The notes: a model not told the origin generated them from the letters alone. DNA of 56,154 nt from an uncultured virus (IMG/VR IMGVR_UViG_3300034072_001506) (IMGVR_UViG_3300034072_001506); one strand, 5' to 3'. Shown: positions 2,685 through 56,002, counted from the stretch's first letter. Numbers and translations: made by a program.

Positions 2685-3800
2685 TTAAACCAGTTCGAAG
2701 ATTTCCCCAGTAATAAGGTCTTCGCAGATGATGATAAAATCATCGACGATTTTTTCAGCAACCTTAGTCACCGCATTTTCAACAATGGTATCCACTTCAT
2801 CGTCGCTCACGAATGCCCCGTGGACCCGACGAACTGTTGATCCGTTGCTGATCAGCATATCACCCCAGCCAAGGAGGTTCTGTGCGCCACCCTGTCCCAG
2901 GGCCGTGCGGCTGTCAATCTCACTGCTAACACGGAAGCAGATACGTGCAGGGAAGTTGGACTTGATGACACCGGTTACAACGTCCACGGAGGGCCTCTGA
3001 GTAGCCATCACAACATGGATGCCCGCTGCCCGTGCCTTTTGCGCGAGACGCTGTACGAGCCCTTCCAGGGTCTTTCCACCAGTCTGCATCAGGTCAGCGA
3101 ATTCGTCGATGAACACCACAATATAGGGCAGGTCGTTACCAGCTTCCCGGTAGGCTTTGATATTGCGAACGCGGGCGTCAGCGAGCAGTCGATAGCGCCG
3201 CTCCATTTCCTCAACCATGTCCTCAAGCGCGCGGATGGATTCGCGCGGATCGGTGATTACCGGCTGAACCAAATGAGGAATGCCGTTGTAAATGGACAGT
3301 TCCAGCATCTTTGGATCGATCATGAGAAACTTACAATCGTCCGCAGATAGTGCGGTCATGAGGCTGATGATCATAGCGTTGATACCAACGCTTTTACCCG
3401 ATCCCGTCGTGCCACTAACCAGCACATGGGGCATGGTAGCGAGGTCGGTGATGACCACCTCGCCCATTACATCCAAGCCTAGAGCAAGGGGCAAAGCGGC
3501 GGTGGTGGTCTTGAATTCCTCACTGGCGAGGACGCTATTGAGCAGGATGGTTTCTCGCTGCTCATTGGGAATTTCAACTGCCAGCGTGGGGCTACCTGGC
3601 ATCACATTGATCTGAACGCTAGCCACACCAAGTAGGCGAGCCACATCCTCACTGAGCTTGATGATCTGCGATGCTCGAGTGCCAGCAGCGATTTCGATTT
3701 CGTAAACGCTGACTAGGGGGCCTTGCTTGGTATCGATGACGCGGACGCGATGCCCAAATTCATCAAGGGCGCGTTCCAGTGCGGAAGCAATATTCTTCAA
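2685..3800 (-). CDS. FtsK/SpoIIIE-family DNA translocase motor domain (no N-terminal membrane anchor, no evident gamma domain)
   Basis: PHVLVSGTTGSGKS Walker A, IDPKMLELS, IVVFIDEFADLM Walker B, LAQKARAAGIH, ATQRPS, DSRT; TTG start after AGGAGATCG. Confidence 0.9.
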   Translation of the reverse strand: MKNIASALERALDEFGHRVRVIDTKQGPLVSVYEIEIAAGTRASQIIKLSEDVARLLGVASVQINVMPGSPTLAVEIPNEQRETILLNSVLASEEFKTTTAALPLALGLDVMGEVVITDLATMPHVLVSGTTGSGKSVGINAMIISLMTALSADDCKFLMIDPKMLELSIYNGIPHLVQPVITDPRESIRALEDMVEEMERRYRLLADARVRNIKAYREAGNDLPYIVVFIDEFADLMQTGGKTLEGLVQRLAQKARAAGIHVVMATQRPSVDVVTGVIKSNFPARICFRVSSEIDSRTALGQGGAQNLLGWGDMLISNGSTVRRVHGAFVSDDEVDTIVENAVTKVAEKIVDDFIIICEDLITGEIFELV

Positions 3801-4213: not shown

Positions 4214-4513
4214 CTAGTCGACGGCTTTGAGATACACCACCTCGCGGGCAAACCCTTTTTTGCGGACTCCTCCGATATAACGGGCGCGTTCAACACGAAT
4301 ACCCAGCTGGCGACAATCGTCGCCATCCAGTCGGTAACCCGAAACGCCGCCCCAGCCAGCCTTCACCATGTCGCCCTTGGCTTCTTCAAGCCTGCGACCA
4401 ATGAACACTTCGCCTTGTTCGGTTTCATACCTGGAAGACCACTGCTCGACCGCCTTCAGAATCGCATCCTTGAGGTTCTGCTTCTCCTGAGCCGTCATTC
4501 TGCGAATTTCCAC
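4214..4513 (-). CDS. hypothetical protein
   Basis: GTG start after AGGAGACCG RBS; promoter module 4536-4571. Confidence 0.65.
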   Translation of the reverse strand: MEIRRMTAQEKQNLKDAILKAVEQWSSRYETEQGEVFIGRRLEEAKGDMVKAGWGGVSGYRLDGDDCRQLGIRVERARYIGGVRKKGFAREVVYLKAVD

Positions 4514-50422: not shown

Positions 50423-50920
50423 TCAAGCGTGCTTTTTGGCTGACGAATGTGTGAAAAACGCAACACCAGAAAGGGTGACGCCCATTAGAGGTATTGAAAT
50501 CACCAAAAATTTCATGGCATATATGAATACCATGCGTCTGGTCAATGGATGAATGAACTCTGCTAATTCCGAGAAAAAGGTAAAAACGAGGACCGAAAAT
50601 ACCAAGGCAAAAGGAACAACAATAGCTGTTAACCAAGCAAAGACTAGATCATCCAGTAATGAATCAGGTGTATCTTCTACCGATGCTTCTGAGACTTTCC
50701 ATCCCATCCTTTGGATTAGATCATCTTCATATCTATCGGCTGTTGCTTTATTCTGGGTGTGCCAGGTAACTTGGATGTGAACACCCTCTGGTGTTTCCAA
50801 GAAGGAATTGAAGCTATCAGGAGTAGCAGTCCCGGAAGGAACAACCATTGTGCCCACTTGGACACCTTCACTGCCAATAGATGGCCCAAATACGAGTCTT
50901 GTCATGTTCCTAAGATACAC
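50423..50920 (-). CDS. hypothetical membrane protein
   Basis: Two C-terminal hydrophobic helices. Confidence 0.6.
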   Translation of the reverse strand: MYLRNMTRLVFGPSIGSEGVQVGTMVVPSGTATPDSFNSFLETPEGVHIQVTWHTQNKATADRYEDDLIQRMGWKVSEASVEDTPDSLLDDLVFAWLTAIVVPFALVFSVLVFTFFSELAEFIHPLTRRMVFIYAMKFLVISIPLMGVTLSGVAFFTHSSAKKHA

Positions 50921-50941
50921 TTTGGAACTACAGTGTCAATA

Positions 50942-51241
50942 TCACATAAAGGTGATACGCAGATAATTGGCTGTCTGTGACTTGCTTGGTCCTTCTTCAA
51001 CAAGAGGACCACTTATACTCTCAATTCGTTCAAAGACATAACCACCCTCTTTGTCGCAAATACGGGCACTCATTATCTTTTTGAGTTCGTCAACTGAAAG
51101 ACCACTGTCAACTATCATACGAAACATTCTGATATCATGATGCTCGTTGAATTGAGCAACATGGACATAGATACCAAACTGCTTGGCTACCACTTCTGTG
51201 AAGATATGATCTCTTGGGTATTCGCGAATATCTATTATCAT
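50942..51241 (-). CDS. hypothetical protein
   Basis: GAGG RBS. Confidence 0.6.
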   Translation of the reverse strand: MIIDIREYPRDHIFTEVVAKQFGIYVHVAQFNEHHDIRMFRMIVDSGLSVDELKKIMSARICDKEGGYVFERIESISGPLVEEGPSKSQTANYLRITFM

Positions 51242-51249
51242 TTGGACCT

Positions 51250-51995
51250 CGTAGGATTCTCTCCTACTTATCCTATTTGTAACCCACTGGTCAGGTTTCC
51301 CACTTTCCTGACACCATCCTCCGCGTTTAGACCATTCGGTCTCCCCGTTTCAATGGACTTCCACGCACCATGTTTTACCGATATGGGCGCGCACCTGTCG
51401 GCTAAACATCAGTGGGTTCTATCTGCTGGAAGGTCTCCTCATTCCTTCACCGAAATATACATGCCTGACTAATGACGAGGCCCGTATATTTCAAAGCACC
51501 AGACGTTATGAGATTTCTCTCAGACGACTCAGCAGATATCATTTAACATAAAGCTTTTGAGACACAAGGCCAGTTTCCCCTATTCTCTAGCACCGCCCAT
51601 ACAGGGCTTTAAAGCGACCTTGCTTCACATCTAGGCGTTGTTCTACCCAAGCTATGGTGTCACCAATTGTGAACTCTTCAACCGCGCCTGGGTTTCCATC
51701 CCACTCATCAATATGAGATCTATATCATGCTAGCAACTTGTGACTCAAAGCTGTCATATGTCTGGCACCCACATCGCCAGCACCGGTTTTAAGAGGCTTT
51801 ACAAGGAGCCCCGGCCCACTAGGGCTTCACCTTCAGCACCATGAGCGGCATCAACGCCTGAGAAGGAATCGCACCCTCCACCGCTTGAGGTTCTACCCTT
51901 GCTTCCGGCCGGAAAGCTTCACAGTGTTACAAAGGTGTATTCCACCGCTGTAACCCAACTGCTTTAGGTAGGGCCACGGTCTCATCATATGACGT
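51250..51995 (-). ncRNA. candidate large (~750 nt) multidomain structured ncRNA
   Basis: Four adjacent multibranch domains each closed by a long helix; upstream TTGACA-N17-TATAGA promoter; no credible ORF. Confidence 0.7.
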
Positions 51996-51999
51996 CTAC

Positions 52000-52028
52000 T
52001 CTATATTACCGCTTTTCAGATGTGTCAA
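52000..52028 (-). promoter_or_regulatory. sigma70-like promoter TTGACA-N17-TATAGA driving the large ncRNA candidate
   Basis: Read directly; no RBS/ATG follows. Confidence 0.7.
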
Positions 52029-52060
52029 ACTAAATAGGACATATAGTGAGGTAATCCATT

Positions 52061-52786
52061 ATGATTGTGAGACTCCTATCTCTAGTTACCGTTCTCCTGT
52101 TTTTTACAGGGGATAGCTTACCAGAGATAGGAAAGCTAGGACAACCTGAAAGTGTTGTAATTGAATCTGTTCCACAACAAATTTTGAATAAGATCGATCC
52201 TCCCCAGCCAAGAGAACTATCCTGGGAACAACATCAAAAAGCTTTGGAATATGGAAGAGAAGCTCTTAAGGATCAGTGCCGAGAGCAGCCTGATGCCCTT
52301 TGGTGTTCCAAACAAAAACTTCCAGAAAAAACGCTTACTCCTTGGCAAATCATGGATATCAGCCTGAAGACCAAGGATAATTTCCGTTATGTTTCAGACT
52401 TGGTTGATATATGGAGAATACATAGCAGTTCAGTTTTAGAAAACAAAATCTGGAGGGGAGATTGCGACGATCTCGTCTCAACAACCAATGATATTATGAT
52501 CAGGAATGGTCAGCCTCGTTCCAAGGTTTGGTTTGCGCTGGTAAATGTCAACCATCAGAAAATACTGGATCATCTAGTCGGAATCGTTGAGGATGCGGAT
52601 GGTCGATTCTGGGTAGTAGGCGATACATCACAACAGAACGCCTATCCAATCGAGCATATGAAATATAGAGTGGTGGCGGTAGCCAAAGCTTCTGACGTTC
52701 TAGTATGGTTTGACCCTAGAGATGCCAAATTCTTCCCTGAGAGGGTCTTACAGAACCAGCCTATTGTAGATCCTTCTACACTATAG
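52061..52786 (+). CDS. transglutaminase-like cysteine peptidase (BTLCP-like), exported
   Basis: N-terminal hydrophobic signal; FRYVSD...W, GDCDD catalytic Cys, HLV, GD. Confidence 0.7.
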   Translation: MIVRLLSLVTVLLFFTGDSLPEIGKLGQPESVVIESVPQQILNKIDPPQPRELSWEQHQKALEYGREALKDQCREQPDALWCSKQKLPEKTLTPWQIMDISLKTKDNFRYVSDLVDIWRIHSSSVLENKIWRGDCDDLVSTTNDIMIRNGQPRSKVWFALVNVNHQKILDHLVGIVEDADGRFWVVGDTSQQNAYPIEHMKYRVVAVAKASDVLVWFDPRDAKFFPERVLQNQPIVDPSTL

Positions 52787-55909: not shown

Positions 55910-56002
55910 TGGTGGAAGTGCCCGGACTTGAACCGGGATCGTCGCCTAATCTGGGCTTTCGCGAGGTATAAGCTCGCCCGCTCTACCTTGAGCTACACTT
56001 CC
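55910..56002 (-). tRNA. tRNA with UAU anticodon (nominal Ile) and long variable arm
   Basis: Acceptor GGAAGTG/CACTTCC, D-arm GCTC/GAGC, anticodon stem GCGAG/CTCGC with loop CTTATAC, ~23-nt variable region with GCC/GGC stem, T-arm CCCGG-TTCAAGT-CCGGG, ACCA. Confidence 0.85.

Follow-up and report, generated by a model that had tools for sequence, protein, structure and literature searches.

A probable new family of modular structured RNA directly upstream of a small phage gene

Only a handful of large ornate RNAs, among them GOLLD, ROOL and OLE, are on record, and none of these has a known function. As described in PMC12286853, GOLLD and ROOL are encoded by phages or prophages, often near tRNA islands; in GOLLD, the 3′ region is universally conserved and the 5′ region less so, and ornate RNAs can assemble into an RNA-only homo-oligomer through kissing loops and A-minor contacts. 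OLE, according to PMC3413148, is a large ornate RNA that works together with the protein OAP. Here, we describe an RNA candidate in the contig IMGVR_UViG_3300034072_001506, the whole 56,154 nucleotides (nt) of which are referred to as the window. This contig is phage-like and carries FtsK-like, NAD-synthetase-like and AlkB-like genes in addition to many genes of unknown function. The RNA candidate, for which all coordinates refer to the minus strand, resides in an 819-bp gap without coding signal (51242–52060). This gap is bordered downstream by a minus-strand gene for a protein of 99 amino acids (aa), ORF99 (50942–51241), and on its other side by a divergent plus-strand open reading frame (ORF) of 241 aa (52061–52786). 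As detailed below, comparison with two relatives indicates that the gap very probably encodes a real, conserved and structured minus-strand RNA that belongs to a new family.

The preliminary description of this locus had proposed a 750-nt unit of four abutting domains, each closed by a long-range helix. All four closing helices could be read directly from the sequence and were also recovered in minimum-energy folds. Specifically, D1 (51753–51993) is closed by an 8-bp helix (51986–51993/51753–51760) and contains 11 predicted helices, while D2 (51552–51752) is closed by a helix of 14–15 bp that is interrupted by one bulge and one mismatch (51737–51752/51552–51568). The closing helices of D3 (51420–51538) and D4 (51281–51418) are perfect 9-bp helices at 51530–51538/51420–51428 and 51410–51418/51281–51289, respectively. 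The individual hairpins that had been named within the domains were likewise present. The conserved unit, however, turned out to be smaller than the four domains when two relatives were taken into account. The first relative, L001, was found in IMG/VR via the ORF99 protein and belongs to a contig of 435,856 bp that has terminal repeats and is rated 100% complete. The second, L019, is a 1,199-bp metagenome contig that was found with a pattern based on the best-conserved block of the RNA and not via the gene; it likewise carries a 99-aa gene just downstream. The alignment of the window with L001 runs from the promoter through 51566 at ∼73% identity, leaves out ∼266 nt, which correspond to D3 and D4, and then continues with GGAUAAGUA, the terminal hairpin and the Shine-Dalgarno sequence. 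In L019, D2 is followed by an unrelated 216-nt stretch that forms one domain closed by a helix of 14 bp (z −4.23; 0 of 200 shuffles). Since D3 and D4 are absent from L001 and replaced in L019, the conserved unit is D1 plus D2, a core of ∼440 nt, and D3 and D4 are lineage-specific accessory domains. Judged from the three sequences, the core is thus followed on its 3′ side by no (L001), one (L019) or two (window) accessory closed domains. A covariance model of the RNA, R1, detected L019 with 82.8 bits (E 3.5e-21). With this model, the window and the complete 435,856-bp relative each yielded a single copy, and neither D3 nor D4 was recognized.

Further relatives appear to be rare. A blastn search with the gap against 50,697 phage records gave no match, scans of the IMG/VR viral contigs returned the L001 contig as the sole true relative, and neither alignment of the 99-aa protein nor a DNA pattern detected anything in genome contigs. 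The loci L003–L008, L010, L011 and L012 were discarded as chance 17-mer matches. The other 14 of the 15 loci from the metagenome scan were also rejected, as BLAST revealed no extended similarity; inspection by eye identified P-loop coding sequence in at least L025 and L029. As a separate observation, a 166-nt contig from the wastewater RNA library X11 (record 1) shares only 51565–51597 with the window (33 nt, 2 differences). By eye, its flanks are unlike those of the window except that CAAGGUCGC is kept, and the same flank motif stands on both sides of the shared block. This contig is either a fourth, more distant member, perhaps with repeated units, or an assembly loop.

Folding of the single sequences was better than that of dinucleotide shuffles, as had been expected, though modestly so. 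The z-score of the whole stretch on the minus strand was −2.88 (0 of 20 shuffles as good), while the values for D1, D2 and D3 plus D4 were −2.48 (4 of 200), −2.05 (5 of 200) and −3.79 (0 of 200), respectively. Moreover, we estimate that about one lone 9-bp helix is to be expected by chance within 800 nt. Because single-sequence folding only moderately exceeds the shuffles, the case for the RNA rests on the comparison with its relatives. The RNAalifold consensus of the window and L001 comprised 115 pairs in 21 helices, and 17 of these pairs had changed on both sides and still paired, nine of them in helices 1–11 of D1. When the partners were shuffled on the consensus structure, none of 500 shuffles reached 17 double-changed pairs, and sliding the partners by 1–3 columns left 0–3 such pairs, with 39–47% paired. 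This control is lenient because the structure was derived from the same two sequences. An independent test was provided by L019. The 55-pair structure of D2, predicted without L019, gave 52 testable cells in this sequence, 47 of which were paired (seven changed on both sides and five on one side) and five of which were broken; three further pairs fell on gaps. In the corresponding slid controls, only 15–24 of the 52 cells were paired. For this test, L019 was aligned by hand-anchoring on shared motifs, as MAFFT and the covariance-model alignment had misplaced its 5′ strand; in the latter case this was due to a 60-nt insertion in L019. The closing helix of D2 illustrates the result, as it differs and yet pairs in all three sequences: GAGUCACAAG/CUUGUGUCUC, GAGUAGUAAG/CUUUCUACUC and GGAUUGCAAG/CUUGCAAUUC. 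Furthermore, against column-shuffled alignments the minus strand reached z-scores of −5.4 for D1 and −5.6 for D2 (0 of 200 in each case). The covariation among homologs that the preliminary description had suggested looking for is thus present, within a set of three sequences only.

With regard to the strand, 34 of the 230 paired cells (∼15%, our count) were G-U, and these would be A-C mismatches on the plus strand. On that strand, the column-shuffle z-score of D1 was only −1.9 (10 of 200). We assign the RNA to the minus strand because the G-U pairs, the strand dependence of D1, the promoter and the co-oriented ORF99 all agree, which bears out the earlier remark that G-U pairing and the promoter point in the same direction.

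Several motifs within the core stand out. D1 contains a T-loop-like hairpin (51861–51879; GGAGGG-UGCGAUU-CCUUCU), the stem of which (helix 7) has six pairs, two changed on both sides and two on one side, while the L001 loop reads UUCGAUU. It also contains a hairpin with the loop CGGCC (51901–51917; pentaloop at 51907–51911), which includes the self-complementary GGCC. In this hairpin (helix 6), two of the six pairs changed on both sides and one on one side, and the window and L001 do not differ in the loop. That this might be a kissing loop is only a lead. Elsewhere in D1, the window has a hairpin with a long GUUACA/UGUAAC stem (51938–51968) in the place of a shorter GCCCAU/AUGGGC hairpin in L001 (∼3556–3580), with an 18-nt difference in length; variable-length stems of this kind are typical of structured RNA families. 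Three blocks are invariant across the window, L001 and L019, namely GCGGUUGAAGAGUUC (51671–51685, in D2), GACACCAUAGC and AUAGGGGAAACUGGCCUU (51566–51583). The last of these lies within helix 21, a hairpin of the form GGU-GCUAG-(13-nt loop AGAAUAGGGGAAA)-CUGGC at 51566–51598. The motif GGUGC occurs eight times on the minus strand of the gap and 48 times along the whole 56-kb strand, whereas GCACC does not occur in the gap. Three of the eight copies are kept in L001, and one more is present in the accessory domain of L019. In the consensus structure, two of the three copies shared with L001 stand at the beginning of a stem with a G-rich hairpin loop; the local folds do not show this for every copy. 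Tandem repeats or iterons were not found in the region at a minimum score of 30, and self-BLAST gave no internal duplication beyond matches of 9–15 nt. RNAs of type III toxin–antitoxin systems (ToxI-like) consist of a short RNA unit in tandem direct repeats upstream of a protein gene, and no tandem direct repeats are located upstream of ORF99.

The promoter that had been noticed previously was confirmed by direct reading. It is a sigma-70-type promoter on the minus strand (52000–52028), with TTGACA at 52028–52023, a 17-nt spacer and TATAGA at 52005–52000, and transcription is predicted to start near 51993. In L001, the orthologous site reads TTGACA-17-TATGAT, with 11 of 12 matches, and the promoter region is kept in the alignment of the two loci. 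The window promoter was not listed by the promoter scan because the final base of its −10 hexamer is A and not T. At the opposite end, the 3′ junction (51241–51273, minus strand) consists of a 9-mer, a hairpin, the Shine-Dalgarno sequence and the start codon. The 9-mer GGAUAAGUA (51265–51273) is kept in all three loci and, at 0 mismatches, is unique in the window. It is followed by the terminal hairpin at 51251–51267, which was confirmed, the Shine-Dalgarno sequence GAGG (51247–51250) and the start codon, the first base of which is 51241. The folds of the window and L001 both contain a GGAU/GUCC helix that encloses the terminal hairpin and abuts the Shine-Dalgarno sequence, whereas in the L019 fold the start-codon region is paired instead and this arrangement is missing. 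We also considered a pairing of GGAUAAGUA back to the segment after D2 that would enclose the accessory domains. This was plausible by eye in L001, weak in the window and absent from the L019 fold, and it was discarded.

In all three loci, the stretch from the RNA to ORF99 is free of terminator-like sites, and no separate promoter-like site was found there either. Downstream of ORF99, on the other hand, L019 has an 18-bp terminator, while the window and L001 have a promoter-like site ahead of the next gene. In view of the missing terminator and the next gene having its own promoter-like site, we regard the RNA and ORF99 as one dedicated transcription unit. The anatomy suggests that this unit, in its simplest form, comprises the promoter, the RNA and ORF99 on one transcript. 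Since a terminator is lacking in all three loci, this transcript probably carries a ribosome-binding site and the ORF at its 3′ end. A free-standing gene with an end of its own is not in accordance with these findings. The RNA had also been described as having a promoter without a ribosome-binding site. The promoter was retained, but the absence of a ribosome-binding site was not, because the transcript probably includes the Shine-Dalgarno sequence and ORF99. The promoter-like site itself lies directly past the ORF99 stop and before a 165-aa gene, at 50912–50939 (minus strand) in the window (TTGACA-16-TATCTT) and at 4303–4330 (plus strand) in L001 (TTGACT-16-TATCAT); it is conserved and sigma-70-like. 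The product of the 165-aa gene contains a hydrophobic stretch.

The 99-aa gene is found downstream of the RNA in all three loci. Its family is small, with only eight proteins among 5.8 billion clusters; the contigs that encode them measure up to 470,746 bp. The protein has no Pfam or PHROG family and no usable match in the ESM Atlas. An AlphaFold model (pLDDT 71.9) predicted secondary structure elements in the order alpha-beta-beta-alpha-beta-beta. With respect to expression, part of the stretch is contained in 20 of 24 listed sequencing runs from 14 studies, two of which may be the source of the window DNA. Four RNA-library runs, which belong to three studies, contributed seven contig pieces that map to 51345–52065. 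Being contigs only, these pieces carry no information on strand, ends or level, and they may stem from DNA carry-over. No RNA-library contig covered the 4.7 kb of flanks, which we do not count as evidence for differential expression.

The surroundings of the RNA contain tRNA genes, which form a cluster in the relative. ARAGORN found neither a tRNA nor a transfer-messenger RNA (tmRNA) in the gap, and in the whole window it found only a tRNA-Ile (anticodon TAT; 55910–56002, minus strand), which is unusually long (90–93 nt) and is located 3.9 kb from the RNA. The same long tRNA-Ile is conserved in the relative at L034:4008-4100, where L034 denotes the neighbouring 40 kb of the relative (record G001). 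In the relative, four tRNAs and a GOLLD RNA are located ∼4–17 kb upstream of the RNA on the same strand. This GOLLD (RF02032) lies at L034:11656-12085 on the minus strand (∼299.7–300.1 kb in G001), in a 1.1-kb ORF-free gap among the four tRNAs and ∼12 kb upstream of the RNA. It was detected with 164.1 bits against a gathering score of 150 and thereby served as a positive control. It displays neither sequence similarity to the RNA nor the GGUGC motif, and the RNA is therefore a different molecule at the edge of the tRNA/GOLLD region. The equivalent place in the phage of the window would fall beyond the window end. One of the four tRNAs (L034:5259-5334, minus strand) has the anticodon CTA of an amber suppressor (‘Pyl’ according to ARAGORN) and lies beside the tRNA-Ile(TAT) and two tRNA-Ser(TGA), a hint that phages of this clade may read through or recode TAG. 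On the other side of the gap, the 241-aa neighbour (52061–52786, plus strand) has a hydrophobic N-terminal stretch and is 78% identical to its L001 counterpart. It gave a sub-threshold match to a transglutaminase-like cysteine peptidase, BTLCP (PF06035; 23.7 bits, cut-off 27), and matched phrog_12671, ‘peptidase’.

These data allowed us to weigh other explanations for the gap. A decayed or recoded protein-coding gene would be conceivable in a clade that possesses an amber-suppressor tRNA, but its probability is negligible. The preliminary description had noted a gap of ∼800 bp without a credible ORF, and indeed all minus-strand ORFs within 51242–52060 have at most 31 aa. The sole larger ORF, of 111 aa on the plus strand (51137–51472), lies mostly in DNA that is missing from L001, has no PHROG match and belongs to no family. 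The 31-aa minus-strand ORF at 51893–51988 is, as read by eye, interrupted by a stop after ∼14 codons in L001. Moreover, the substitutions between the window and L001 lack three-base periodicity in the RNA core (46/33/34 mismatches by position modulo 3, p 0.25), which is in contrast to ORF99 (9/7/50 by codon position, p 2e-12) and the 241-aa gene (42/21/110, p 5e-17), although nucleotide identities are similar (73%, 78% and 76%, respectively). TAA, TAG and TGA occur in each of the six frames, and no frame spanning the gap opens when TAG is read as Q or table 4 is used, codes that were tested because of the CTA anticodon in the relative. That the RNA is a divergent member of a catalogued family, such as GOLLD, ROOL, OLE, RNase P RNA, tmRNA, T-box or group I/II introns, is extremely improbable as well. 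Its size and phage setting would fit, as would the tRNA at 3.9 kb, the tRNA cluster with GOLLD in the relative and the T-loop-like hairpin. A search of the whole window with the 4227 Rfam models, however, gave no match at the gathering score in the gap, the families without a match including GOLLD (RF02032), ROOL (RF03087), OLE (RF01071), RNase P, tmRNA, T-box and group I/II introns. At E ≤10, the region and the cores of the window and L001 gave only unrelated and mutually inconsistent matches, and putative resemblances of a few short motifs to RNase P or T-box found no support in Rfam. In addition, the GOLLD control in the relative was detected and is dissimilar to the RNA, the polarity of which is opposite to that of GOLLD. 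Of the original suggestion of a GOLLD/ROOL-class or new large non-coding RNA, only the second part therefore stands, and the earlier remark that no known family was recognized holds true. A DNA-level element, be it a divergent promoter or regulatory region, a replication origin or a packaging site, is very improbable. It would account for the location between divergently oriented genes, for the high conservation of the first 70 bp, which include the promoter and the beginning of the 241-aa gene, and for the enrichment of the short GGTGC motif. It would not account for the 115 pairs kept by compensatory changes, many of them via strand-asymmetric G-U, for the one-stranded occurrence of the motif (eight versus none), for the lack of tandem repeats and iterons, or for the RNA-library contigs that cover the region.

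The alternative that deserves most attention is a giant cis-regulatory 5′ leader that would sense a protein, an RNA or a metabolite and would control ORF99 translation via the 3′ junction, without any other role. The RNA lies on the same strand as ORF99 and directly upstream of it in all three loci, with neither a terminator-like nor a separate promoter-like site in between, and GGAUAAGUA is kept throughout. The lack of a terminator, together with the helix that abuts the Shine-Dalgarno sequence in the window and L001 (and the paired start-codon region in L019), favours this idea. Known leaders, however, are mostly shorter than ∼250 nt, and a core of ∼440 nt with 21 helices is far above this size. 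The presence of no, one or two whole accessory domains between the core and the Shine-Dalgarno sequence would be unusual if core and expression platform were coupled; the loci also differ in how the 3′ junction is paired, and a switch between alternative structures was not demonstrated. Because of the size, the invariant loops and the domains inserted between core and Shine-Dalgarno sequence, an ordinary leader is disfavoured, and we consider a purely regulatory leader possible but unlikely. What can be stated about the RNA in any case is that it has a promoter and a ∼440-nt D1 plus D2 core, that D3 and D4 extend it to ∼750 nt in the window, and that it is single-copy and non-coding. Taken as a whole, we lean slightly towards the view that the window encodes a new modular structured RNA (51242–52028, minus strand) that forms one unit with ORF99 and whose role lies in cooperation with the 99-aa protein or in scaffolding. 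The RNA would then be a functional molecule in its own right, an ornate scaffold working with the protein made from the same transcript, and the hairpins with GGUG-C stems and G-rich loops, together with the invariant loops, would be its contact sites. The model for such a pair would be OLE RNA with the neighbouring gene for OapA; oapA adjoins the RNA in one operon. The chances of an RNA–protein or scaffold function appear to be about evenly balanced.

A number of observations weigh against our interpretation. Only three sequences are available, one of them partial, which is too few for R-scape-grade statistics, and the structure that was tested derives from two of them. The five broken cells among the 52 in L019 were obtained with an alignment that was anchored by hand, and the fold of D3 and D4 is an energy-based prediction because these domains have no homolog. 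The whole stretch folds better as the plus strand (z −5.58, 0 of 20) than as the minus strand (z −2.88), and D2 does not discriminate between the strands either (z −7.1 for plus versus −5.6 for minus, three sequences). In the promoter, the −10 hexamer of the window is without the usual final T, and one RNA-library contig, X11 record 3 (51871–52065), extends ∼70 nt upstream of the predicted start. The ORF99 model matches a generic alpha/beta two-layer sandwich (best Foldseek E 0.01 with a TM of ∼0.45; best VIA Z 7.0); the matches include ribosomal protein S6 permutants, PilO/EpsM and phage neck proteins, and a family can be neither assigned nor excluded. RNA binding by the ORF99 protein, a discrete end of the RNA and any function are putative.

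More tentatively still, the RNA may represent an undescribed class of ornate RNAs that is specific to a clade of GOLLD-carrying phages of ∼0.4 Mb. Members of this class would be strings of closed domains that gain and lose domains at the 3′ side, and they would form a defined particle, be it with the 99-aa protein or as an RNA-only multimer via the invariant self-complementary loop. In the infected cell they would act in trans, a conceivable target being the translation apparatus that is served by the phage tRNAs. We regard this wider proposal as somewhat doubtful. Nevertheless, with so few ornate RNAs known, a new class with a genetic partner would offer a handle on function, and since there is one small gene on the same transcript, this gene is the obvious candidate partner. 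The natural gain and loss of accessory domains marks out a minimal functional core. The co-occurrence with GOLLD in one genome makes it possible to compare the two RNAs within one system, and the host sigma-70-type promoter implies that the RNA can probably be expressed in a laboratory bacterium, although the phage is uncultured.

Our literature search, which did not extend to the supplementary lists of candidate phage RNAs in PMC10690425 that might include it, gave no description of this RNA. What is informally called an ornate large RNA is several hundred nt long, non-coding and has a covarying structure, and all of this was found here, in three sequences only. The RNA has some features in common with the leaders of T-box and ribosomal-protein genes: an ORF on the same strand follows it immediately, no terminator intervenes and, in the window and L001, a helix adjoins the Shine-Dalgarno sequence. 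Unlike these leaders, it is ∼2–3 times larger, has whole accessory domains before the Shine-Dalgarno sequence and matches none of their Rfam models. It resembles ROOL, as characterized in PMC12286853, in being a phage or prophage RNA of several hundred nt with many helices, no known partner and a frequent location near tRNA islands, whereas it has no covariance-model match to this family. In both the window and the relative, the RNA is phage-encoded and lies near tRNAs, which is the genomic context of GOLLD and ROOL. The likeness to GOLLD (PMC12286853) extends to a large phage-borne ornate RNA of unknown function with a conserved and a variable part in a neighbourhood of phage tRNAs. The polarity, however, is the opposite of that described there for GOLLD, as the new RNA is conserved at its 5′ side and variable or absent at its 3′ side, and it runs into a protein gene without a terminator. 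As GOLLD and the new RNA occur in one genome, they are not substitutes for each other. OLE, finally, differs in that its model does not match, in that it belongs to extremophile bacteria and not to phages, and in that the 99-aa protein is without a family and only a putative RNA-binding partner. As with OLE, nevertheless, an ornate RNA is here tied to a small gene, and this holds for all three loci.

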